Assembly (NCBI GenBank): GCA_010405405.1
Contig: MU004230.1
Coordinates: forward strand, 1,708,627-1,772,626
Source of the DNA: Microthyrium microscopicum
Taxonomy: Eukaryota
Direction of reading: 5' to 3'
Length of the DNA: 64,000 bases
Part shown: one piece after another, positions 2,994 through 50,418 of the stretch
Layout: each line of letters starts with the position of its first letter
How positions within the stretch are numbered: position 1 is the first letter of the stretch
Position numbers and translations under genes: made by a program
Notes under the pieces: generated by a model
Told to the model about the DNA's origin: nothing
What the model saw: the letters and a program-made list of their open reading frames with translations, nothing else
Databases searched by the model: none

Positions 2994-3923
2994 ATGACAA
3001 CACCAAACCTAGAACCATCCGCCCTCACCACAATCCTCCCAACCATCCTCCCCCTCCTGCACTCCCACCGCACAAACTCCCCAACCCCCTTCATCCTCGC
3101 CATCTCCGGCGCCCAAGGCTCCGGCAAATCCACCCTCGCTTCCGCCCTCGCGACCTCTCTACGCGCCCACAACTACTCCGTCCTGCCTCTCAGTTTAGAC
3201 GACTTATACCTCCCGCACTCTGGTCTAGTGCGTGCACGTGAATCAGGGAATGCATTGTTGCGCACACGGGGCGCACCGGGGACGCACGATGAGGTGTTGG
3301 GCGCGGAGGTATTTGGGAAATTGAGGAAGGGTGAGGACGTGAAGGTGCCGCAGTTTGATAAGAGCAGGTTTAGTGGGGAGGGCGATAGAGTGAGCGAGGA
3401 AGAGTGGGAGGTCGTGGGACGGGTGGATGTTGTGGTTTTTGAGGGGTGGTGTGTAGGTTTTCGGGCTTTGAGCGCTGAGGCCGTCGAAGAGAAATGGATG
3501 GCGGCAAAGGAGGAGGCGAAGCGGAAGGGATGTGTGGAAAGAACGAATGCGTTGGCGGGATATGAATTGGCGGATGTACAAGCGATCAATGTGAATCTAG
3601 CGCGGTATGAGGCTGCGTTCATGGGCCCGCAATGTGTGGATTATATGGTGCATTTGGATACGGAGAATTTGGAGACGGTGTTTGGGTGGCGGACGGAGCA
3701 GGAACATGTCCTGAAGAAGCTGAAGGGCGAGGGAATGGGTGATGAGCAAGTAGAGCGGTTTGTGATGGGTTATATGCCGAGTTATCAGCTGTATTTGGAT
3801 GAGCTGCGGACGAAGCCATTCTTTAAGGATGATCCAGAGTATAAGCAAGGGAGAAAGGGGCAATTACTCGTGGTGCTCGATAAGAACCGACAGGTAGTGC
3901 GGACTAAAGACTGGTCTCTATAG
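2994..3923 (+). CDS. P-loop kinase, TDA10 / D-glycerate 3-kinase-like
   Basis: ISGAQGSGKST Walker A, SLDDLYL, RGAPGTHD, FEGWCVGF motifs; single 309-aa ORF. Confidence 0.9.
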   Translation: MTTPNLEPSALTTILPTILPLLHSHRTNSPTPFILAISGAQGSGKSTLASALATSLRAHNYSVLPLSLDDLYLPHSGLVRARESGNALLRTRGAPGTHDEVLGAEVFGKLRKGEDVKVPQFDKSRFSGEGDRVSEEEWEVVGRVDVVVFEGWCVGFRALSAEAVEEKWMAAKEEAKRKGCVERTNALAGYELADVQAINVNLARYEAAFMGPQCVDYMVHLDTENLETVFGWRTEQEHVLKKLKGEGMGDEQVERFVMGYMPSYQLYLDELRTKPFFKDDPEYKQGRKGQLLVVLDKNRQVVRTKDWSL

Positions 3924-4147
3924 ATGGTGCAGACTTGACAATAGTGATATTATGTATTGATACCTTAGCTACACCGAAATCAATATCGCACGTTCAAGTC
4001 AGAATCGTGGGATTCAGGCTGTTATGGCTCATAATGTATATTCAGCCTGTCCATTCACTAAGCTCAAATCGAATGGATCTGGTAACCAGATATATAAGAT
4101 ACATTGATTGCAATCCATGTAAGAATGTACAACATGAGCAGAAAATA

Positions 4148-7000
4148 TCAGTTTCTCAAAACATGCACGAAAGCGGTGGATTTTTCCTAACTTTGTTAGC
4201 ATATTAACGTTGAGTTTTAGACAACATTACTTACCCATTGAACTTCTTCTTTGTTTGTCTTGGGATTGACCTTGACAGCAAGTATCTCTACCTCGATCTT
4301 GGAAACACCACCTCGCCCAAGGCTACACTCGAATATTGGGTTGGTCTTATCTCGTTCCTGATTTCCAAGCTTGGTATTTTCGCTATGTCGATGGCCATTG
4401 ACCATTACGAATATACGATAACCTCTATCGGTAGCTGCAACCGGGATATTGGGAGTGATCTGCAGCTGATACTGCGATGCAGGAACAGTGAATGTGACGG
4501 ATTGGTGGAGGCTGGTTTTGGATGCTGGAACACGGAATGACAACGGGTTCCGCAAACCCAGAGCAGGATGAGTTTGGATCAATACAGATGGTAAAAGGTA
4601 GTCGGATGGATCTGAAATAGTCAGTAGGCATGCAACACTTCTTCTACAAGCTCCTTACCTTGATCTTTAGCTCGAAACTTGCTTGGGACGAGACCTGGGG
4701 GCGGTCCATCAGAAGCCTGAGTAGTGTAATAAGATGAAGTCTGTTGTTGCGGATGTGGGCTGTTGCTTGTAGGCCGTAGAGGTCCACCGTACTGGACAGC
4801 CGCATGAGCAGGGTGAATAGGATTGAGAGAAGGGGATTGTGTAGCAGTCTCGTTCTTCACACCATTTCCTAGTACGGGAATCGAGGCAGCAGACGCACTA
4901 CGACTTGCACTCGTAGGAAGGGGCGGGATAGCACCTCCACTACCAGTAAATGGGTTTCTAGGACCACCGTTGACAGTTGAACGGGCTCCATTGACTCCTG
5001 CCGACACCATTTGCTGTTGGCGTTCCAGAGCATCATTATGCACCAGAAGCCCAGGCGTGCTACGCGCAGGCGTTGATGGACCGGGCGTAGAAGAGGGGCT
5101 ATCTCTCATAGCTCCGAATTTGATTTTGATACCAGATTGCTTTGGTTCTGCGACTTTGAGTTTCAGTGTTTGTGCTTGAGGCTTGTGCACTAGTGCTTTT
5201 GCTGCTTCAAGCTTTTCTCTAAATGTTTCCTACTGGTGGTTAACAGTGGCTATATTGCATTTCGAAATTACTTGTCATACCTCGAACTCGTTTGCCAGGT
5301 TGAACATCTCGCTTCCATCTTCGTTGTACGTCTGCGCGTTTTCCCAGACGTATGTGACTTCCTCTTCGAAAGCATCCCAGCTGTGGAAATCAGAAATTCC
5401 AGTAGCTGCATTTCGGCCGTGAATGCCACGCACGCGCTTCTGCAGGCTTTTTAGCGAGACTGGATGTCGTATTACTTGATAGTAATCGGTCAAAGTCCGC
5501 GATGGCAGATTGATGAAAGGTGTGAATATTTGCAGTCCTTCCCTGTATCACTTGTAAGAAACAATTCCACAGGATTGCAATCTTGAAGTTGAACTTACTC
5601 TTCGTGATCAATAAGCTCAGAAATGATCATGTCCTGAGCTTTTTCAAGGGTCCGGCCCTTGAATCTTTGGGGATCGGAAGGATCAATGTCCTCGTCGTCG
5701 TCCTGGATGCTTACAGATTTGCGAGCAGAAATTGCTGATGATCCGCGTCTAGCAGAACGTTCTGCACCTCCCATGGTCAATCTGCCGCTGTAAGATGGAG
5801 TGCCTTGCATGGACACATCAAGCATGTGAGTATCGTCTGGAATAGGTGTAGCCACCGCGACATAGTTGGGATTCCGATATGCCGGGTTATGTCTGGTCAT
5901 GAAATTTGACGCGGTCTTACGAACTCTCTCAGCATCTTCGTAGAGAGCAGAACCTTTTTCATTGAATGACTTGGCATTAGCGACCATGCGCTTGCAGTCA
6001 CTTTCCAAAGCTGATAGGTTATGGTATTCTCTGTTCAAGAGTTTTGTCTGTAGTGCATGAGAGGATGTTGTTCTAAGATGGCCAAGGTTAGTTACTCACC
6101 TCAATTGTATCAAGTGCAATGGGTAGTTTTGTGACTTCGTAGTAACCTGGGATGTGCTGAAACTATGTTAGCGGCCTTCTACCATTTGCGGGGCGATCGC
6201 AATTACTCTATCCGGTAATGTTAGGAAGTTTGTTGCAATAGGTCGTCCACTAATTACCAAGTTAGTACCCCAATCTTTTCAACGCAGTTGGTTCAAAGAT
6301 CTTGTATGAAGGAAGTGAACTTACGTTTTGTCTCTGGCATTGCGAATTGAGTCTAGAAATCTTATTCCAGTCTCTGTAGTAGTTTCTGCAGTTTCTTCAG
6401 ACTGGTCCATTGCTCCCTATAGTAGTAGATGCCATGATTAGCAATTGACCGCCAAGGATATTTGGCTATATAATTTGACGTTGATGGTATTATTCCAACG
6501 AGCAGAGCTGATTGAAGCAGAAGTTGAAGCAGTGAATATGCAACACCTGCTGCAGGCAGAGAATGGGATATCTGCTGCAGACCTTGGACCATCTGGGTCT
6601 TGGTGGAGGTGCAAGGGGAGTACTCTAGTAGTATCAATGGACAATTGCAAGGTTGGGGGTTACTCTAGAGTATTGGGTAGGCAGATTGAGGTGCTGGCGG
6701 GCTGCACGCTTCCAGAATAAACATGGATTATTGATGCGCTCAAATCTTCTTGTTCTGGCTGGCGCGTCGCCCTCTTTCTGCTTCAATTCAGGGTCCCGAT
6801 CTGACAGACAACCTGGACTGTCACCTCAACTCTGTCTTCTTGCCCCTTTGGTATCTTGTGCAGGTCGTCGCCTGGGTAGTGTGCTTGTCCATTCCATCTC
6901 TAAAACTTACCGGTAGTCTCTGGCGCTTTGTGCTTCGTGGGGTTTCCGTCTCAAAGGCAGCTTGCGCAGCGGCTTTCCGCTTCGCGTCGCGTTGATCCAT
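4148..7000 (-). CDS. Tandem-bromodomain chromatin-remodelling protein (RSC4/polybromo-like), multi-exon
   Basis: Two bromodomain segments (MVANAKSFNEKGSALYEDA; YYQVIRHPVSL...VWENAQTYNEDGSEMF); start MDQRDAKRK at 7000; last exon EKSTAFVHVLRN* ends at 4148. Confidence 0.8.
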
Positions 7001-16582: not shown

Positions 16583-18048
16583 GTGGTGATGGCTGGAGGG
16601 TGTGGTAATTGAGATGATGGGACTGGCCACGATTTGTATATTCGATAGCGAATGTGTATGTGTATATGAGTAAGAAGAATGTATACTCAAAGTAAGCGGA
16701 AAATTGATGTGCTCTCATGGAATGGTGGTGATGACTCGAGTCAGAAAGCACGATGTTTCTACTCCCATCGTCCTCGACTATTTTGTGATATTGTTTGGTA
16801 TGTCGATTTTACCTACGTGTTAGATTGTCGGTTGTCTCACCCAGCGGTTGCCGATGTAAGTAAAATTGAACAAGTTGCCCCGTACGAGGGTCTTATCTGC
16901 GTCAAGGAGTATACCCGCCTGCGATATCTGACTCTCTTTGTATAGTCGATTGAGTGATCAGGTGTCAGCAAACGTACTCGCAAGCTCCCCTTACATAGAT
17001 ATATGCTAGGTTACACATTACGTGCAAGTCTCCTGGGTTGCTGTAGCTGGAGTTCACCATCACGTATAAGCTGACAGTCCGACTACCGTACCAAAGTCTG
17101 CTGTTACCTTGCAATGAATTTCGCAATGCAGGTAAAGAACAATCTTATCTTCTCTTCCTCACGAAGTCAAAAAAGCCGATTGTATACATTCATATTTCCT
17201 GGGTCAATAATCGATTTCTATTCGGTCTGGTGCTGATCAGCATGAAATGGGCGCATGCCGTGGAGTATTTTCAAATTCGCCAGAAATAGCTCAGTACGAG
17301 TAGGATAGTATCAGACTAGAAATTGTATATTCTACACGTAGGATGGCTGGGAAGAAAAAGGATTGATCCGTTGGAGCTGGAGTTGAGGCTCCCAAATAGC
17401 AGGAATGGGTGATCGACGCTAGGCGCCTTATTAAGCAGAAGATCACTAGGTCCAAGCTTCACTAGCGCAGGATTTCAGCCAATGAAATGATCGTAAGAAC
17501 AAGACACGCAGCTTCGGACTTGGTTGGTGGCACCAGACGAATGGAGAAGGCGCAACCATGGAACTACTCCTTCAAACTTTCCGCTACAGGCAGTTACGTT
17601 GGTGCAACACTACCAAGTAAACACTTGTCACTCAACCACAACTCACTCCTCTCCGCCTCTACGCTTTTACAACCACCAAGCCATTGCCATCTACTGCAAC
17701 ATCTATTCTTCAACTTATTTCTCCCTGTTCAGCCAGCTGCCTGGCTTTGTTCTCGACTTGCGCCAAGCAGAAACTCGTACTACCTTCCACCTCCTTTGAA
17801 CCTCCCTCATCCCCCTTTATACCCGCTGAGTTCCAACAAGTCCTGACAAAGACATCGGCATCAACCATCCGCCTGTTGAACCCCAAATACGGACACATGG
17901 ACTGTTGCCCATCATAAGCCCTCGCGCCGCTCATCTATTGCGGCCCGTTTCCGGGTGCTAGCTGGGCTTCCTCTAGCCTTGAGAACTCCACACACGCCCA
18001 TACCTACAGAAACACCTTTTGCTTGCTGAAAGGTCATATCATCTCGTC

Positions 18049-20658
18049 ATGCGAGTTCCTACAATACTGCTGGCCCTCTTTGGTCTAGCATCCGCGACAT
18101 CGCATATATCAGAACGCTCGAACCGCGATTACACCACTCACGACTACTATGCCCTTCACCTCGACCCTTCCTCCTCCCCTCACGAGGTCGCACTCCATCT
18201 CGGACTCGATTACGATGGACAGCTCGACTTTCTCGATGACCATCACATGTTCAAAGCTGCCAAACATCCCAATGATGTGGTCGAAGAATCAATACAAGCC
18301 CTAAAGCATCGAAGAAAAGTCAAGAGAGATCTCAGTCCTTCGCCCTTGGACAGTATTAAATTCAATCAGAAACAAGTTCAGCGGAAACGTCTATTCAAAC
18401 GAGGAATCATTCCTCGACCGCTGGCAGGCTTACATGATAGGGACGCTGTAGTACTGCCAGAAACAACCAATTCTCTTCTGGAGAGAGCAGACGTCATCAA
18501 GCAACTCGGCATAACTGACCCAATTTTCAGCGCTCAGTGGCATCTATTCAACACCAAAGAAGTGGGAAACGATATGAACGTAACCGGTGTTTGGCTCCAA
18601 GGAATTACAGGAAAGGGTGCCACCGTTTGCATAGTAGACGACGGCCTCGACATGGATAGCCTGGACTTGAAACCAAATTACTTCGCAAAAGGCTCCTACG
18701 ACTTCAATGATGGACAAGATGAACCGAAGCCAAAGCTTGATGATGATCAACATGGCACCCGATGCGCGGGAGAGGTGGCTGCCGCCAAAAACGATGTATG
18801 TGGCGTTGGAGTAGCCTACGATGCCCGTATATCAGGGGTGCGGATACTATCGGCTCCCATAAGTGACGTTGACGAAGCAGCTAGCATAGTATACGGCTTC
18901 CAAGAAAACGACATTTACTCCTGCTCTTGGGGTCCGCCCGATGATGGTCGCACTATGGATGCACCAGGATTACTGATAAAGAAAGCTATCCTGAAAGCCG
19001 TTCAAGAGGGTCGTGGAGGCAAGGGTACCATCTATGTTTTTGCTGCTGGAAACGGCGCCGCTGCTGGGGACAACTGCAACTTTGATGGGTATACGAATTC
19101 CATTTATAGCGTTACTATCGGCGCAATTGACAAGACGGATGCCCATCCATACTACTCGGAGAAGTGTTCCGCGCAGCTTGCTGTTACCTACAGCAGTGGC
19201 GCTGGAGAAGCCATTCACACAACGGACATCGGGACCAACAAGTGTACCAACATACACGGAGGTACATCTGCTGCAGGACCGCTTGTTTCCGGAGTGTTTG
19301 CCCTTGTCCTCTCGGTCCGACCAGATTTGTCGTGGAGAGACATACAGTGGCTCACTGCGCTAACTTCAGTCCCATTCTACAAACAAGAAAAAGAGTCAGA
19401 GTGGCAGACGACCGCAACTGGCAGAAAGTTCAGTCATCAATATGGCTACGGCAAAGTCGATGCATGGCAAATAGTAGAGCTGGCAAAGACCTGGAAGAAT
19501 GTCAAGAAACAGGCTTGGTACTTTTCACCATGGATTCACGTCCGAACGGCAATTCCTGAAGGCAGCAACGGATTGTCAAGTACATTCGAAATAACGCCAG
19601 ACATGCTGAGGGTTGCCAATTTGGAACGCGTCGAGCATGTTACCGTTACAATGAACGTTGCTCACACCCGTCGAGGAGACATCAGCGTTGAATTACATAG
19701 CCCGACAGGAATAATCAGTCACTTGTCCGAGACGCGGCGATTCGACGAGGCCCCTATAGGCTATATTGACTGGACCTTCATGACTGTTGCTCACTTTGGT
19801 GAAACAGGCATTGGCAAATGGACCATCATCGTCAAAGACTCGATCGAGAACAAGAACAAGGGAACCTTTACCGATTGGCGAATCAAACTTTGGGGAGAAT
19901 CGATCGATCCAGCAGTTCAGGGAATGCTTCCGATGCCCACAGAGAATGAGGACAAAGATCATGACGTGGACGTGACAACCGGGGTGATAGGTACCACATC
20001 TGTGCAGCCCAAACCCACCTCCAATATTATTGTTACAACAGGCCTCCCCACCCGCCCCTCTATTGTAAAGCCTACAGACTCACCTAACGCCTCTAGCACC
20101 GATTCGTCCACAGGTTCCCCTACTTCCGTGGCTCAAACCCCTCCCTCAGAATCCCAGGGAGAGTCCGCTGGAGAAACAAACGGCAAGCTGGACGAGGCTG
20201 TTCCCTCGCCAAGTCCCACTGGGTCCTCTTTTCTTCCCTCGGTTTTTCCCACCTTCGGTCTCAGCAAGCGAACTCAAATCTGGATCTATGGCGCCCTCGC
20301 GCTTATACTCATCTTCGTCGCCTCGCTTGGTGCCTACTTTTTCGTTCAGCGTCGCCGTCGTTTGCGCAACAATCCTCGTGACAATTACGAGTTTGCCATG
20401 CTAGACGACCAGGAGGAAACGGACGGCATGCTTGCTTCAACTACACGCCGTGGACGCCGTAGACGGGCTGGAGAGTTGTATGATGCTTTTGCGGGCGAGT
20501 CGGATGAGGACTTGTTCTCAGACGATGATGCTGAGTATCGAGATGAGAGCCGGGAGCATTTGCCCGGTACTGGGTTTGCGGGCAAGGGCCGGCCAGTCAA
20601 TGAGAAGGATGATGGGGCTCAGAGTGATGATGATGAAAAGGGTGGGTTGGTGAGGTAA
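18049..20658 (+). CDS. KEX2: Kexin (Kex2) subtilisin-like proprotein convertase
   Basis: Signal peptide, prodomain with KR sites, DDG / HGTRCAG / GGTSAA catalytic motifs, P-domain, S/T-rich linker, TM helix, acidic tail. Confidence 0.95.
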   Translation: MRVPTILLALFGLASATSHISERSNRDYTTHDYYALHLDPSSSPHEVALHLGLDYDGQLDFLDDHHMFKAAKHPNDVVEESIQALKHRRKVKRDLSPSPLDSIKFNQKQVQRKRLFKRGIIPRPLAGLHDRDAVVLPETTNSLLERADVIKQLGITDPIFSAQWHLFNTKEVGNDMNVTGVWLQGITGKGATVCIVDDGLDMDSLDLKPNYFAKGSYDFNDGQDEPKPKLDDDQHGTRCAGEVAAAKNDVCGVGVAYDARISGVRILSAPISDVDEAASIVYGFQENDIYSCSWGPPDDGRTMDAPGLLIKKAILKAVQEGRGGKGTIYVFAAGNGAAAGDNCNFDGYTNSIYSVTIGAIDKTDAHPYYSEKCSAQLAVTYSSGAGEAIHTTDIGTNKCTNIHGGTSAAGPLVSGVFALVLSVRPDLSWRDIQWLTALTSVPFYKQEKESEWQTTATGRKFSHQYGYGKVDAWQIVELAKTWKNVKKQAWYFSPWIHVRTAIPEGSNGLSSTFEITPDMLRVANLERVEHVTVTMNVAHTRRGDISVELHSPTGIISHLSETRRFDEAPIGYIDWTFMTVAHFGETGIGKWTIIVKDSIENKNKGTFTDWRIKLWGESIDPAVQGMLPMPTENEDKDHDVDVTTGVIGTTSVQPKPTSNIIVTTGLPTRPSIVKPTDSPNASSTDSSTGSPTSVAQTPPSESQGESAGETNGKLDEAVPSPSPTGSSFLPSVFPTFGLSKRTQIWIYGALALILIFVASLGAYFFVQRRRRLRNNPRDNYEFAMLDDQEETDGMLASTTRRGRRRRAGELYDAFAGESDEDLFSDDDAEYRDESREHLPGTGFAGKGRPVNEKDDGAQSDDDEKGGLVR

Positions 20659-20848: not shown

Positions 20849-22438
20849 TTATCTCATTACTAGTGTCTGCCTTTCTGGCTCGCTAATGGCACAGTCTAAG
20901 GAAGTGAAGCGCTCCAGCAGGCCAACCTGCCAATCTTGATATGTCTGCGATGCGGTCGGCAGTACAGCTCTACTTGATAGTAGAGTGCCGAGTATCCGTG
21001 AGTATATATTCGCTGGGAGCAGTACGTGCTCAACATTGAGTTGATTCTCCTTGAGCACTTTCTCAGGCTCGTCGATAGACTTCCAGAATACCTTCATCGC
21101 TCGTGTTGGATCTTGTCTCTTTTCTTGATCAAATGAACTCGAATATGCGAGATCGTTTGTGAATACCCAGAGCTACACAGCGTTAGAAACAAATCCACAC
21201 CTATCAAATCCAGCTATGACTTACCAGCGCCGCCTTCCCCGTTCCATCTGCCTTGCGGATATCCTCCTGTATTAAGAACCTTCTCGTCCCTTCGGCATCA
21301 ATCGCAGACAGCAACTGGGCACTAAACCACTTGACAGTCGCATATCCCTTCGTCTTCGCACCCTTCGTTACTTTCAGACTCCACTTTGACAACTTCAGCG
21401 CATCCGTCGACCGATCTTCAACACCCACCACGTGCTCACATTTAGCACATTGCACGTTCATGGGCAGATTGTCAGAAACGCTTGTTGATTTCTATATAGA
21501 ATGTCTCGTCAGTATATATATCTGACGGATGAAAACAAACATGAATCCAAAAATGTGTTCTGTCCTATTCCGCCGACCCACTGCTCAAAAGCCCGCAGCC
21601 AGAGGACAGACGGTAACCACATCAGCAACCTTCCGCAAGCAACCACAACACTAGGTATCGGGTACATCTTGCGTGGGCAGGTGAGGGAGACCGTGTTGTT
21701 CTTGGGCAGGTGTATCGGACGTCCACGCCATGGATTGGGTGTGGTCTCCTTCTATACTGCCCGAATATTCCCCCTATATAACCCAAAGTCCCTCAGCTCA
21801 AACAGAGCATATATTCACGTTCATTTCATGCATAACAAGGAGTGCTAGCTTACCTGTATCGCACCACTACAATCACCCCCATTAACCAACACATATCCCA
21901 AACTCACAAAACCCACGCCTTCAGCCACAGTGAAACGCTGGCCAGCTGCATATGCACGCCGTTCAGCGGAGCCATCACCGTCGCCGTCGGGGGGTTTGTG
22001 GCAGTGCCAGAGGTCCATCATCTCTGCCCATTGCTCGCTTGGTAGATCACGCCATTGTAGTTCGTGCACCAGCAGATTTTCGCAGGCGCTGCAGTGGAGT
22101 GTTGTGCCGGTTAGCGCATTGCTGTCCCAGGGGACTGCGTTGCCCTCGTCGTTAGAGTCTAAACGCGTCTGGTCTTGTAGCTGGAGACGGTAAGATAGGC
22201 TTTTTTGAGGGGTAGTTGGGAGTGCAAGCTTGGTGGATGAGGAGCCGGGGAGACCGCTGGGCAGGCGGATGGAGCTAGTGTGATGGTCGTGTGTGATGGT
22301 TAGGGAGGAGGGGTTTGTGGAGAGAGTAGCGGTGGTGGAGCGGTTAGAGGGGGTGGAAAGGGTGATGAGGAGAGATAGGGCGCGGAGGTTTGTGAGTAGT
22401 TCGGCGTATATTTGGATGGGCGGTGGGGACGGCGACAT
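20849..22438 (-). CDS. Ubiquitin-conjugating enzyme E2-binding protein (HECT_2; UBE3D/Ipa1-like); long intron 21492-21853
   Basis: IYAELLTNLR start, CSAC, WRDLPSEQWAEMMDLWHCHKP, CAKC, LPTASQTYQDWQVGLL motifs. Confidence 0.85.
21551..21766 (-). ncRNA. Intronic box H/ACA snoRNA/scaRNA candidate, snR81-like (predicted guide for U2 Psi42)
   Basis: 5' hairpin GGGCAG/CUGCCC with pocket strands AGAA and GAUAC complementary to U2 GUAUC-(U)G-UUCU; H box AGAACA (21697-21702) 14 nt after the pocket; 3' hairpin UCUGUCCU/AGGACAGA followed by ACA-UUU. Confidence 0.7.
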
Positions 22439-22759: not shown

Positions 22760-23824
22760 TTATGCAGTATCCATCTTGTCATCGTCATCCTTCTTCTTAT
22801 CTGCTGTCTTGGATCCACCTGCTTCCTCTGAATCCTTTTCCTCCGACAGTAACGGTGTCTTTTCATCGCCCTCTGGAATAGCTCCAAGTTTCTCCTTGTC
22901 TTCCTTCTCTTGTGCCTTCTTCTCCTTCTCTTGCCGCGCCTTTTCTTCTTCGTAACTCATACGCAGGGCCAATGCAAGTTCTGGATCAACCTCAGGATTG
23001 ACACCAAACTCGAAACCATTGCCCCCATCGCCCATGGATGTATCTCCACCGGAACCACCAGCTCCGGTATTACCGCCAATACCTTCATTCGCCAACAGGG
23101 GTGTGGAAAGAAGTTGGTCGCTGAGGAGGTTTGGGCTAGGAGGGATTATTCCGAGATATGAGCCTTCGGCATTCTTGACCGCCTCGTTGAATGCCGTGAG
23201 CTTTTGCTGGTCTTCTTCATCAGGTTGACCAAATGAGATGATGTCTATGGAGATATTGTTCTTCTTCATGCGCTTGGCGAGCTTGACTAGAGACTTTTCG
23301 TCTTCGGAGATGGGGGAACACGAGAAGACGATGATTCGCTGACGTTGAGATTTGTTTCCGCGATGTTTTAGAGCAAGCTAGAAACCAAAATGAGTATATT
23401 GAAGCAATGAAGTCGACTCAGGGAGCCTTACCGCAGCAATGTTAATGCCGGTGCTGAAATGCGCTTTGCCCTTTATCTTGGTTCGGTGCATGCCGTCTAA
23501 GATCTTGCCCATGTCTGTTGTGAGAGTTGTAAGAACCTCTGGGCCGTGGCCTCCCATGCTCATGAGGCCGACCGATGATTCGGGATTGGCGTTGGTCTTT
23601 GCGTTGTAGATGAGGTTTACGGCATCAGCTTGAGCGCCAAATCGAGTGGGTCTGTTCCGGTTAGGATTATTCGAAGTATTGAGAGACAGCTCAACATACG
23701 CATAGTCGCCATTTCTGCTGCTCTCACTATTGTCGACCCTGATCGATTGTTAGTGTTTGAAGTGACTTGAATGGCAAATAGCAAGGCGGGCGGCTTACAC
23801 TATCATAGTGGCCTCTAGAACCAT
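22760..23824 (-). CDS. RPN10: 26S proteasome regulatory subunit Rpn10, multi-exon
   Basis: MVLEATMIV, DNSESSRNGDY, vWA domain, UIM DPELALALRMSYEEE. Confidence 0.95.
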
Positions 23825-47784: not shown

Positions 47785-50418
47785 ATGTATCTCCCGCGCT
47801 CCCTAATATCGCACCTGTACAATGATCTCGTCCGGTCTCGTACATCTCTCTCGCCTTCGGTGCTGGTTCTCGTTTCACTCGAGCCTGACGCGTTATGTGC
47901 ATGCCGAATCCTCACGTCGCTTTTCAAGAATGACTATGTTCAACACAACATAAAACCTATTGCAGGTTATGCTGACCTCGCTCGGGTTGGGGAGGAGGTG
48001 ATCCGCCCAATGCGAACCACGGAAGGTGGCAGTGGTGGTGTTGTCGTCTGTCTCGGCGTGGGCGGTCTCGTAGATCTCGAGACTATCCTTGGCCTTGAAG
48101 TTGATGATGATGGCAATGGTGGTATGGGTGGTTTAGATGTCTGGGTGTTCGATGCACGACGTCCATGGAATTTAGCCAACGTGTTTGGCATGCAAAGTCG
48201 CGTCGAGCAGGTCAACGGCGAAGCAGTCTCGAGGATTGCAGGCGTAGAACACGGCAAGATTCTACAAACATTTAAACCTGGCGAAGGCGGCATTATAGTC
48301 TTTGACGATGGCGATATTGAGGAGGAGCTCAGAGCTGAAAAGGAAGCCTACTGTGCACTAGCTGAAATGCCAGATGTTGACGAAGAAGATGATGGAGACG
48401 ATTCAGACGACTCTGATGCAGGATCAGACCACGACGCAGACGACATGATACCTGAGTCAGGTCAGCCACAGATTGCGGATAGCGATGAAAGCGACAAGAG
48501 CTCGATAGGGGAGAAAAGAAAGCGAAGATCATCTCCCCAATTTAGTGACGACGACCACGAAGACAGTGATCCCGAAGAAGGAACGCCGAATAAAAGAAGA
48601 CGAAGCAACTCCTCATCACCGTTACCCTCATCTTCCCGACCGGCTGCCAGATCGCTAATGATACTATCCAAGCCAAATGACCAGCAAGTTGGTCAGCACG
48701 CCGAAGCATCAACGCATGGACAGCCTTCAGCCAAGAAATTGCGCAAACAGCTACTTAAGTTAAAGAGAAAACATGACTCTGTACTTCGAAAATACTACAA
48801 CCTAGGCGCTTCGTATTCAGAACCTATCTCATCACTCATGTGGAATCTAGCCTCTGAACTTGGTCGAGATAGCAATGACTTGCTATGGCTAGCCATTGTT
48901 GGGGTGAGCAGCGGGCAAATATCTGGCAGAACCGCCAGCGGCATTGGACTTTCACCAATTTCTACGTCTGGAACCTTATCGAGTTGGACCAAGGATCGTG
49001 GGGAGCGCATTCGCGCAATCTTTCGAGATGAAGTTCGTCGTCTCAACCCTACAGATCTTCGTGATCTAGCTCGCGAAGTAGGTGGTGATACTGGCATCAT
49101 ACCAACAAGAGCATACAGTCCCACCGATAATTCCATCAGATTGACACCCGAGCCCAGATTCCTTCTTGTCAGGCATTGGTCATTATATGACAGCATGCTC
49201 CACTCGCCATACCTTTCTGCCAAACTACACATCTGGAGTGACGCTGGCAAACGCAAAATGCACAAACTACTTGCAAAAATGGGGGTTAGCATTCAACAAA
49301 GTAAACAGAACTACCAACACATGGACATGGAAATTAAGCGGGGTCTTGGTGAGAAGCTTGTTCGATTCGCTCCTCAGTATGGCCTTGAAGGTCTCGTACC
49401 GCCTGAGACTCGGCTCAACAGCAAAGAAGGCTGGGGTTTCGTTCGATGTTGGGGCTGGAAAGCTTGCCTCAGCGCAATAGACTCTGGAATCATACTCGGA
49501 GCCATTCTCGAAGTTGGTGACATGGATGTTAAAACTGCAGCAGAGCAAGCTCGCAATGCTGCTCTACAATCTGCTGCTCACTCTGGCACCAGCACGCCTT
49601 CCAACAACCAAGATGCTCCTTTGCAAGGGGCCAAAGCTCCTACCCCTGCACAAGCACAGCTTTCTCGCGAAGAGTCTTTGCTCCGGCGCTTCTGGTCGGC
49701 CTACGATGCACTCGGGGACGTTATGCAGCTCACCTCAGCTATACCCACAGCACAACATTTGCATCGTGCTATCCTTCGGACCGGCACATCACTCATTGAG
49801 AAGCGACAAATTCGCCATCTTCGCGCTTTCCGCATGGCAGTCGTGAAGGAAGGACCAGATGTCGCATTGTTCACACATCCAGGTGCACTAGTCAAGTTGG
49901 CCTTATGGCTAGCCGAAGCAATCAGCGAAATGGACAGCCTCAAAGGCGCACGAACTGGCGAGCTCGTCATGGCCGGTCTCGACGAAGCGCGTGGCGTCTA
50001 TGTTGTCGTTGGTCTCGGCGGTGGCAGCGCAGTAGCCAAAATGAAGGAGCGCGAAGCTAGAGTCGCCGAGCGTAAGAAAGAACGGGAGCGGACAAAGGCA
50101 GAGCGCAAGGCCGCCAAGGACAAGAAGCGTCAACAGCGTAAAGATCGGCTGGCGGCATTGGGCGAGAGCGATGCTGAGGACGAAGAAGATGACGAGACGG
50201 AAAGCGAAGCGAGTGAGAGCGAGGAGGAGAGTGAAGATGAAGAGGAAGCTCCTCGAGGCAAGGGTCTCAATCGATTTGGAAATGCGTTCCAGGAGGTTAT
50301 TGAGGAGACTGGCGTGCGTGTCAAGGTAGATAGCTTTGAGCACTGTGTGGTGGAGATTCGCAAGGAGGATCTTTCTGGGTTTTTAGAAAGTCTGTGCATG
50401 AAGGCGGTTGTGGGATAG
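47785..50418 (+). CDS. CDC45: DNA replication initiation factor Cdc45
   Basis: EPDALCACRIL, DARRPWNLANVF, FLLVRHWSLYDSM, LLAKMGVS, NRFGNAF motifs; single exon. Confidence 0.95.
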   Translation: MYLPRSLISHLYNDLVRSRTSLSPSVLVLVSLEPDALCACRILTSLFKNDYVQHNIKPIAGYADLARVGEEVIRPMRTTEGGSGGVVVCLGVGGLVDLETILGLEVDDDGNGGMGGLDVWVFDARRPWNLANVFGMQSRVEQVNGEAVSRIAGVEHGKILQTFKPGEGGIIVFDDGDIEEELRAEKEAYCALAEMPDVDEEDDGDDSDDSDAGSDHDADDMIPESGQPQIADSDESDKSSIGEKRKRRSSPQFSDDDHEDSDPEEGTPNKRRRSNSSSPLPSSSRPAARSLMILSKPNDQQVGQHAEASTHGQPSAKKLRKQLLKLKRKHDSVLRKYYNLGASYSEPISSLMWNLASELGRDSNDLLWLAIVGVSSGQISGRTASGIGLSPISTSGTLSSWTKDRGERIRAIFRDEVRRLNPTDLRDLAREVGGDTGIIPTRAYSPTDNSIRLTPEPRFLLVRHWSLYDSMLHSPYLSAKLHIWSDAGKRKMHKLLAKMGVSIQQSKQNYQHMDMEIKRGLGEKLVRFAPQYGLEGLVPPETRLNSKEGWGFVRCWGWKACLSAIDSGIILGAILEVGDMDVKTAAEQARNAALQSAAHSGTSTPSNNQDAPLQGAKAPTPAQAQLSREESLLRRFWSAYDALGDVMQLTSAIPTAQHLHRAILRTGTSLIEKRQIRHLRAFRMAVVKEGPDVALFTHPGALVKLALWLAEAISEMDSLKGARTGELVMAGLDEARGVYVVVGLGGGSAVAKMKEREARVAERKKERERTKAERKAAKDKKRQQRKDRLAALGESDAEDEEDDETESEASESEEESEDEEEAPRGKGLNRFGNAFQEVIEETGVRVKVDSFEHCVVEIRKEDLSGFLESLCMKAVVG

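Follow-up and report, generated by a model that had tools for sequence, protein, structure and literature searches.

A conserved intron of a UBE3D/Ipa1-like gene in Microthyrium microscopicum and related fungi is predicted to encode a box H/ACA guide RNA for U2 snRNA

Introduction

Why is the first intron of a UBE3D/Ipa1-like gene in the fungus Microthyrium microscopicum 362 nucleotides (nt) long, and does it hold a guide RNA for U2 small nuclear RNA (snRNA)? The gene lies on the minus strand of a 64,000-nt stretch of contig MU004230.1 (assembly GCA_010405405.1, positions 1,708,627 to 1,772,626), which is called the window here and in whose numbering all coordinates are given. An earlier note, made from the letters of this DNA, had read in the intron (21492–21853, minus strand) a box H/ACA RNA directed at U2, with Saccharomyces cerevisiae snR81 as its counterpart. 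In this study, the same intron was compared among related loci, and the element was present in every evaluable orthologue, with covarying stems and fixed guide strands. Because of this conservation at the orthologous intron, we concluded that the intron probably encodes an unannotated, conserved box H/ACA guide for U2 snRNA that is functionally snR81-like.

The U2 snRNA of S. cerevisiae carries pseudouridine (Psi) at positions 35, 42 and 44, and Psi42 is constitutive and made by the 5′ pocket of snR81, as described in the U2 passages of PMC4931107; the earlier note had given the same role to snR81. Psi42 adjoins the branch-site recognition sequence. In the literature examined, fungal guides for this stretch of U2 were described only for S. 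cerevisiae (snR81) and Schizosaccharomyces pombe.

Results

Conservation of the Element in Orthologous Introns

Because the nearest named homologues of the host protein in the database were just 43–44% identical to it, metagenome contigs from JGI were scanned with an alignment of 14 HECT_2 proteins. The 363 pattern matches led to 228 confirmed relatives, and the best named protein matches of the metagenomic loci showed about 30–62% identity. The best 80 of the 228 (L001–L080, with proteins 29–42% identical to the Microthyrium host protein) form the orthologue set on which every orthologue count below rests. When these loci were aligned with the host protein by tblastn, 252–432 nt of extra DNA stood at the exon junction in all 48 loci with high-scoring segment pairs (HSPs) on both sides; the long intron is conserved at the same position among the orthologues. 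A search by nhmmer with the Microthyrium intron gave 14 weak matches (best E = 1.1e-7), all on the gene strand and inside the intron gap, and it was this lead that opened the comparison of orthologous introns. The same intron in blastn-short returned only chance 12–17-mers.

A relaxed scan found the U2-pocket hairpin in 69 of the 69 loci where 200 nt or more follow an exon-1 HSP, and in seven further loci (six missed by the HSP filter, plus L025); it found no hairpin in four loci, whose contigs end 26–78 nt past the exon. The intron zones, 21,180 nt together, held 74 such sites against 2.8 expected from a background of 88 sites in 662,448 nt. A strict scan asked for pocket strands AGAA and GAUAC/U between an upper stem that closes and a lower stem paired 5/5, with ANANNA at +13 to +16. 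It matched the intron zone in 35 of 80 loci, compared with 2 matches in unrelated DNA of the flanks, 728,638 nt in all (about 3 per Mb). Its single match in 128 kb of the window was the candidate itself. At this rate, chance matches to the strict scan would be expected many times per whole genome, and the Microthyrium sequence on its own is weak evidence for a guide RNA. The candidate is taken as more than a chance match because it is conserved at the orthologous intron. In the comparison of orthologous introns, which the earlier note had proposed as a check, the 5′ pocket strands were fixed and the stems covaried. The Microthyrium RNA is taken as the local member of a predicted family that occupies this one intron of the host gene across many related filamentous ascomycetes.

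Covariation and U2 Pairing of the 5′ Hairpin

Eleven named pairs of the hairpin were scored on alignment A2, made with MAFFT from 53 5′ domains, of which 50 rows are distinct. Paired cells amounted to 85.3%, against 37–48% when the partner was slid by one to three columns, and the covariation score was 0.454, against at most 0.167 after sliding; none of 500 shuffles reached the observed score, and double changes occurred in 10 of the 11 pairs. Alignment A7, with 43 main-group sequences and Microthyrium left out, behaved in the same way (89.1% paired versus 37–49% slid). Because the orthologues are related to one another, the shuffle controls overstate significance and should not be read as probabilities; sliding the partner gives a fairer control.

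The lower stem varies, with GGGCGC/GCGCCC, GGAUGG/CCAUCC and GGGCAA/UUGCCC among the orthologues and GGGCAG/CUGCCC in Microthyrium, while the loop strands stay constant. In the main group, the 5′ half consists of a lower stem GGGnnn, a 5′ pocket strand ending in AAGAA, GG and a variable upper hairpin, and the 3′ side of C, GAUACAA, nnnCCC and then an A-rich H-type box. A subgroup (e.g., L035, L040, L049) has CCGGC after AAGAA, and its upper hairpin is built differently. The 5′ pocket strand was AAGAA or longer, giving at least five pairs, in all 49 distinct orthologue rows, and the 3′ pocket strand was GAUAC or GAUAU in 48 of 49. The exception, L058, carries GUAUAC and makes 5+1 pairs. In L076 the GAUAC scored by the script belongs to the upper stem, and the actual pocket strand is again GAUACAA.

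For the pairing with U2 we used yeast U2 nucleotides 31–78 as printed in PMC4712673, in the part that is also the source of the U2 numbering here; the U2 mimic used for cryo-electron microscopy of the SF3B complex (PMC12342898) has the same GUGUAGUAUCUGUUCUU. AAGAA pairs with U44–U48 and GAUAC with G37–C41, so that U42 and G43 are left unpaired, and the canonical pairing of GAUAC and AGAA around an unpaired UG, which the earlier note had drawn, holds on the yeast sequence. Contiguous pairs over the 50 distinct rows were 5+5 in 41, 5+8 in 6 and 5+6 in 1, where the scored target motif ends at U48 and five pairs are the ceiling on that side; at least 5+5 contiguous pairs around U42/G43 were thus formed in 48 of 50 rows. 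Rows with GAUACUA and GAUAUUG form eight contiguous pairs, G-U allowed, over GUAGUAUC. The target motif itself, GTATC..TTCT, occurred 0 times in the 955,410 nt examined, which included partial 18S fragments. An ANANNA box stood at +13 to +16 in 35 of 50 distinct rows, in nearly all of them at +14 or +15.

A covariance model of the 5′ domain, R2, was built from 43 orthologues without the Microthyrium sequence. Run over both strands of the window, it placed its best match at 21692–21767(-) with 38.8 bits and E = 6.4e-9; the next match had 16.5 bits with E = 0.018, and the third 10.5 bits with E = 0.94. The second match, 48504–48549(+), is a GGGGAGA...TCTCCCC hairpin in apparent lysine/acidic-rich coding sequence and is probably due to chance.

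Structure of the Predicted RNA in Microthyrium

The unconstrained minimum free energy (MFE) fold of 216 nt, 21766–21551(-), consists of exactly three hairpins. Within it, the predicted mature box H/ACA RNA is about 212 nt long (21551–21762, minus strand) and runs through a 5′ hairpin, the H box, an inserted hairpin, a 3′ hairpin, ACA and 3 nt. Its ends follow the rule that ACA lies 3 nt before the 3′ end, and this rule, like the other H/ACA rules used for comparison, was taken from the sections of PMC2780460 that describe them. The plan of hairpin, hinge with H box, hairpin and ACA is present in the Microthyrium copy.

The 5′ hairpin (21704–21762, minus strand), which model R2 and the covariation identify, has a 6-bp lower stem, GGGCAG/CUGCCC (21762–21757 with 21709–21704), a 7+7-nt pocket and an upper stem-loop starting GGA...UCC (21749–21717). 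In the 5′ pocket strand UAUAGAA (21750–21756), AGAA pairs with U2 U44–U47, and in the 3′ strand GAUACAC (21710–21716), GAUAC pairs with U2 G37–C41, which leaves U42-G43 unpaired; these 4+5 pairs fit the 9–13 bp of two-sided complementarity around an unpaired U-N that is expected of an H/ACA pocket. The H box AGAACA, of the form ANANNA, lies one nt after the lower stem (21697–21702, minus strand). From the G that opens GAUAC, at position 51 of the 216 nt folded, to the start of the box at position 65 there are 14 nt, a target-to-box distance that fits the 14–16 nt rule for H/ACA guides. The earlier note had described this hairpin with the same pocket and stems and the same 14-nt spacing; the sequence has them at these positions, and the MFE fold agrees.

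An inserted middle hairpin of 85 nt occupies the hinge (21610–21694, minus strand). In the MFE fold it contains the helices ACGGU/ACCGU and CGCAAG/CUUGCG, also listed in the earlier note, and an apical helix ACCC/GGU. The 3′ hairpin (21560–21609, minus strand) folds with a lower stem CUGUCCU/AGGACAG, a vestigial pocket CUGG/AAU of only 4+3 nt, an upper stem and the loop UUGAGCAGU. The lower stem has 7 bp and not the 8 bp given earlier; the ACA-UUU end was read correctly, with the ACA box at 21554–21556 (minus strand), preceded by AAC, followed by UUU (21553–21551) and in register with the orthologues' ACA in the alignment. As read from the fold, the loop at the tip of the 3′ hairpin contains a CAB-box-like UGAG (21584–21587, minus strand).

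The 3′ Hairpin and a Candidate 18S rRNA Target

In the orthologues, RNAalifold gave the 3′ hairpin lower, upper and apical stems, and all of its 11–12 pairs showed compensatory changes. Paired cells made up 87.5%, against 30–54% in slid controls, and the covariation score was 0.649, against at most 0.225. Of 52 orthologues, 50 had ACA in the corresponding columns, and L038 and L062 had AUA. The internal loop has (G/A)UUUCA on its 5′ side and GAU(U/A)A on its 3′ side, and in L040, whose 3′ hairpin spans L040:3370–3447, the first G of the 3′ pocket strand lies 14 nt from ACA by hand count.

Taken as reverse complements, these strands predict the target UAAUC-UU-(G)UGAAAC. To search 18S rRNA, a published 18S primer was used; it found one small-subunit (SSU) rRNA in viral_contigs, L081. 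A 17-mer taken from L081 then gave 63 loci in prokaryote assemblies, about 26 of them evidently contaminating eukaryotic 18S. Several eukaryotic 18S fragments carry GGUAAUCUUGUGAAACUC, and many others have GUUAAAC. With the GUGAAAC variant, at least three plus at least five contiguous pairs formed in 25 of 52 distinct 3′ domains, and by the same pairing criterion 0 of 52 fitted the GUUAAAC variant. We consider it about equally likely to be right or wrong that the orthologue 3′ pocket targets this predicted 18S site, because the fit needs either three unpaired nt or the closing pair opened.

The first U after AAUC is 281 nt before the 18S 3′ end at all nine loci that reach the end, which places the site near 1519 in an 18S rRNA that we take to be about 1800 nt long. 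The yeast table in PMC5699541 lists 18S Psi1415 and Psi1290 (snR83), and the next entries after Psi1415 are Gm1428 and Gm1572; the region of the candidate site has no listed Psi in that table. Yeast 18S Psi1415 (snR83) had been considered as the target of the 3′ pocket and proved wrong, the matching site being the one 281 nt from the 18S 3′ end. A 25S site, CUAUC-UA-GCGAAAC, was also considered and dropped, as most guides have UUUCA and not UUUCG.

The 3′ pocket strands are altered in L015, L019, L033 and a few others, as they are in Microthyrium. Given the collapsed pocket in Microthyrium and the altered strands in these relatives, a function on 18S would therefore be dispensable within the family; the U2 pocket was never lost. 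In Microthyrium, the 3′ hairpin and ACA probably serve only assembly and stability of the ribonucleoprotein (RNP).

The 18S search also brought up misplaced eukaryotic sequence. About 26 of the 63 loci are eukaryotic, mostly fungus-like, 18S ribosomal DNA, and most lie on short contigs from assemblies filed under bacteria or archaea, a sign that those assemblies are contaminated (L082, L083, L091, L093, L095, L096, L106, L110, L112–L114, L116, L117, L119, L121, L123, L124, L126–L130, L134, L138, L139 and also L087). The remaining 17-mer matches are chance ones in ordinary bacterial DNA. L081 (IMGVR_UViG_3300029287_000002, 3554–4543) is a contig of the viral collection that ends in a eukaryotic SSU gene (SSU_rRNA_eukarya, 577.6 bits); the contig is either not viral or chimeric.

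The Inserted Hairpin and the Terminal Loop Motif

In every orthologue, an insert of about 60–100 nt follows the H box and precedes the 3′ hairpin, and plain MFE folding gave exactly three domains at matching positions in 33 of 53 full-length sequences. Within a clade of 15 sequences, RNAalifold found 22 pairs in the insert, 11 of them with compensatory changes. The family-wide MAFFT alignment of the insert was too poor for this analysis, and RNAalifold predicted 0 pairs on it. A middle-hairpin model from the 15-sequence clade, R1, gave 20 matches among 59 sources, all in that clade, and did not find the Microthyrium copy. Two short motifs are widely shared among the inserts of the family, (U)ACCC(UC) and GA(U)GGGU(U), which are able to pair and appear in Microthyrium as ACCC...GGU. 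Because the family alignment and R1 failed, the broad conservation of the insert is argued from its size, its position, single folds and these two motifs.

The aligned terminal loop of the 3′ hairpin contains AG in 48 of 52 orthologues, in 22 of them as NGAG, and no constant AG was seen in the loop of the 5′ hairpin in the orthologue alignment. Metazoan H/ACA scaRNAs (small RNAs specific to Cajal bodies) have a Cajal-body (CAB) box in their terminal loops, with the consensus UGAG and a crucial AG, according to the description in part of PMC2172171. By chance, about 4 in 10 stretches of 10 nt would contain an AG, and the orthologues are related; the CAB-box-like motif in the 3′ loops of the orthologues and of the Microthyrium copy is accordingly offered as a lead, not a finding. 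No report of CAB boxes in fungi was found in the literature examined.

Host Gene and Neighboring Genes

The host gene has three exons (window 22438–20849, minus strand) and encodes a UBE3D/Ipa1-like protein of the HECT_2 family (PF09814). Exon 1 (21854–22438, 195 codons), exon 2 (21225–21491, 89 codons) and exon 3 (21172–20849), all on the minus strand, matched Pfam HECT_2 with E = 1.6e-43, 1.2e-13 and 1.4e-15, respectively, which bears out the identity given to the host in the earlier note. Intron 1 reads GTAAGC...TACTGAC (21514–21508)...TATAG and contains the predicted RNA, and intron 2 (21224–21173, minus strand) has 52 nt. Exon 1 is 100% identical to an NCBI hypothetical protein of Microthyrium microscopicum (P0001), and the three exons joined by coordinates give exactly this 391-amino-acid database protein. 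Because splicing yields the database protein exactly, the 362-nt intron proposed earlier is real and correctly delimited.

Just downstream of the host gene, an open reading frame of 891 amino acids on the plus strand (17983–20658) resembles by eye a kexin-type subtilisin proprotein convertase and seems to have a C-terminal membrane anchor. The upstream neighbor (22760–23749, minus strand) is, again by eye, like the Rpn10-type proteasome ubiquitin receptor and has at least one intron.

Discussion

In this study, conservation at the orthologous intron, covarying stems and fixed guide strands supported the core proposal of the earlier note, an H/ACA guide for U2 in the intron of the host gene. 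Considering these results, a plausible course of events can be proposed. Once spliced out of the UBE3D/Ipa1-like transcript and debranched, the intron would yield an RNA of about 212 nt, which would be trimmed to its two boxes and assembled with the complex of the pseudouridine synthase Cbf5. The internal loop of its 5′ hairpin would then pair with U2 on either side of U42-G43 (yeast numbering), in the geometry shown above. U42 lies just downstream of the sequence that recognizes the branch site; the pairing would set it in the active site, at a distance of 14 nt from the H box, and it could be converted to Psi.

Several points weigh against this interpretation. The stable RNA, its ends and its binding to Cbf5 are predictions from sequence; the U2 target motif is that of yeast and of the PMC12342898 mimic and not that of Microthyrium's own U2; and no Psi map of U2 from a filamentous ascomycete was found in the literature examined. 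The guide of Microthyrium is the weakest of the family, with 4+5 bp and UAGAA where AAGAA stands elsewhere. In 15 of 50 distinct rows the H box does not fit ANANNA, most of those shown beginning with AGA (AGAUUG, AGAUCG), and the orthologues are mutually related, some being near-duplicates (50 distinct among 53 rows). The fold has a z-score of only -1.66, with 12 of 200 shuffles folding equally well, and the extra hairpin in the hinge is a departure from the canonical H/ACA plan. The Rfam search that the earlier note had suggested gave no match at the gathering threshold in the window or in 20 orthologous loci, and neither a snoRNA (small nucleolar RNA) model nor any other family matched at E ≤ 10 in window 21400–21950. 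R3, a model built from 52 orthologous 3′ domains, had no match in the window at E ≤ 10; with filters off over 21450–21900, it gave 21551–21628(-) at 2.9 bits and E = 1.2, the fourth of ten weak matches. The Microthyrium 3′ hairpin lacks the UUUCA strand, and no more than 4+3 nt are left of its pocket. With this collapse and the failure of R3 to recognize the domain, the suggestion in the earlier note that the second pocket is an orphan or novel guide does not hold for Microthyrium.

Among the alternatives, the first is that the RNA is a genuine H/ACA RNA whose 5′ pocket has another physiological target, such as an rRNA or another snRNA site, so that the match to U2 is secondary. Just 9–10 bp of complementarity are fixed, H/ACA pockets can serve several substrates, as the passages of PMC4931107 on the snR81 3′ pocket illustrate, and complete fungal rRNAs and snRNAs stood outside the scanned set. 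However, the pairing with U2 is in canonical register, with exactly two unpaired nt, at a U that is Psi in yeast according to the U2 passages of that source, some clades extend it to eight contiguous pairs, and GTATC..TTCT was absent from the 955,410 nt with their partial 18S fragments. We consider another target very unlikely.

A second alternative is a conserved cis-acting element of the precursor messenger RNA, which would regulate splicing or expression of the host, possibly by touching U2, and would not be a stable trans-acting RNP. The element always lies in the same intron of the same gene, its U2 complementarity adjoins the branch-site recognition sequence, and the excised RNA is a prediction from sequence. 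Such an element gives no reason for an H-type box at +14, for ACA in 50 of 52 orthologues or for a second hairpin, nor for the second conserved bipartite pocket that fits 18S rRNA in about half of the orthologues; together these features equal the exact specification of an H/ACA RNP. The probability of a purely cis-acting element is therefore small in our view.

It could further be supposed that the family functions elsewhere and that the Microthyrium copy, with its 3′ domain degenerate, is a decaying relic which forms no stable or active RNP. The missing R3 match, the 4+3-nt pocket and the weakest U2 guide of the family, at 4+5 bp, all fit such decay. Decay would, however, be expected to erase all parts together. 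The 5′ domain keeps its stems, pocket and H box and reaches 38.8 bits (E = 6.4e-9), the 3′ hairpin remains in the right place with its 7-bp lower stem and ACA-NNN, and the intron is still 362 nt long against 52 nt for its neighbor; a relic is improbable on this evidence. A chance structure in a long intron, which the z-score of -1.66 and a chance rate of about 3 strict-scan matches per Mb would allow, is refuted by conservation, with the element in 69 of 69 evaluable orthologous introns, its stems covarying and its site found at E = 6.4e-9 by R2, which was built without Microthyrium.

A guide for U2 at this position would have several consequences. The family would fill a gap in the filamentous ascomycetes, and guided modification at U2 U42 would be older and more widespread than the snR81 lineage suggests. 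It offers a directly testable pair of guide and target, and the conserved linkage of host gene and snoRNA is usable as an annotation marker. It also forms a natural series in which the 18S pocket is kept, altered or lost and the U2 pocket remains constant. A much wider proposal, which we regard as speculative and rather unlikely, is a scaRNA-like class of guides in filamentous ascomycetes, with the intronic family as the first example: a three-hairpin H/ACA RNA would modify both U2 U42 and an 18S site unmodified in yeast, the CAB-like NNAG or the extra hairpin (ACCC/GGGU) would act as a localization or assembly signal without a budding-yeast counterpart, and the output of the U2 guide would be coupled to the host factor. 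If true, this coupling to host expression would follow because the RNA is locked in an intron of a regulator of messenger RNA 3′-end processing.

Comparison With Known Guide RNAs

No description of this intronic RNA was found in full-text literature searches, which covered article texts with the N. crassa and snoRNAome supplementary lists outside the search. The sections of Liu et al. (2009; PMC2780460) available to us report 20 H/ACA RNAs of Neurospora crassa and predict no snRNA pseudouridine sites, and the Aspergillus fumigatus screen of Jöchl et al. (2008) had no H/ACA RNA among its clones. Table 2 of PMC2780460 describes Nc ACA8 as a 192-nt RNA marked 'IR', predicted to guide 18S-Psi1509 through its ACA pocket, and the same source describes Nc ACA9 as a 201-nt intronic orphan. 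By description, which is the sole basis of this comparison, Nc ACA8 shares with our family the size class and the phylum, and its predicted target lies no more than about 10 nt from the 18S site of the orthologues; the two sites may be the same. Compared likewise by description, Nc ACA9 shares size class, phylum, intronic position and the lack of an assigned target. A passage of Canzler et al. (PMC5824354) mentions two N. crassa orphans confined to Neurospora without naming them there. It is possible, judging from these partial accounts, that the RNA has already been cloned, for example as Nc ACA8 or Nc ACA9, with its U2 target unnoticed.

The vertebrate and Drosophila scaRNAs for U2 (e.g., SCARNA8/U92) are similar in being intron-encoded H/ACA guides for the branch-site region of U2, and the UGAG/NNAG motif of the fungal family resembles CAB boxes in its place in a terminal loop. 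They differ in target positions and sequences, the fungal motif is conserved in the 3′ hairpin loop only, and Cajal-body targeting is without evidence in these fungi. S. pombe pugU2-43/44 is an H/ACA guide from another fungus and is aimed at this short U2 stretch as well; it too was found through pocket complementarity with ACAGATAC as the 3′ side, as set out in the relevant part of Deryusheva and Gall (2017; PMC5473140). In contrast to the intronic family, the same part of that paper places its guide in a 3′-terminal pocket, directs it to positions 43/44 and locates it downstream of RPC10, outside an intron. The register of Microthyrium cannot place 43/44 because the base before GAUAC is C, whereas an A would be needed.

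A functional parallel is snR81. It is likewise a box H/ACA RNA, and its U2 pocket, too, lies upstream of the H box within the 5′ hairpin and leaves U42 and G43 unpaired, to judge from the passages of PMC4931107 on its U2 pocket. According to the same passages, snR81 has two hairpins, whereas the intronic family has three, and its 3′ pocket acts on 25S-1051 and U2-93. Unlike that pocket with its 25S site, the 3′ pocket of the intronic family fits an 18S site in roughly half of its members and has collapsed in Microthyrium. In the relevant passage of Canzler et al. (2018; PMC5824354), snR81 and snR83 are traced only within Saccharomyces, and Donovan et al. (2016) did not find an snR81 orthologue in the Candida parapsilosis group. 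The intronic family has no detectable sequence or structure match to snR81 (no Rfam match at E ≤ 10). A model of snR81 is present in Rfam, and snR81 is an independent gene, in contrast to the intronic RNA described here. The earlier view of a counterpart of snR81 thus stands in the functional sense, in pocket and register, and falls as a statement of homology. Because no model matches, the 3′ target differs and a third hairpin is present, the family was not filed under snR81 (HACA_26 of Canzler et al.); in the guiding of U2, the intronic RNA is predicted to work as snR81 does.

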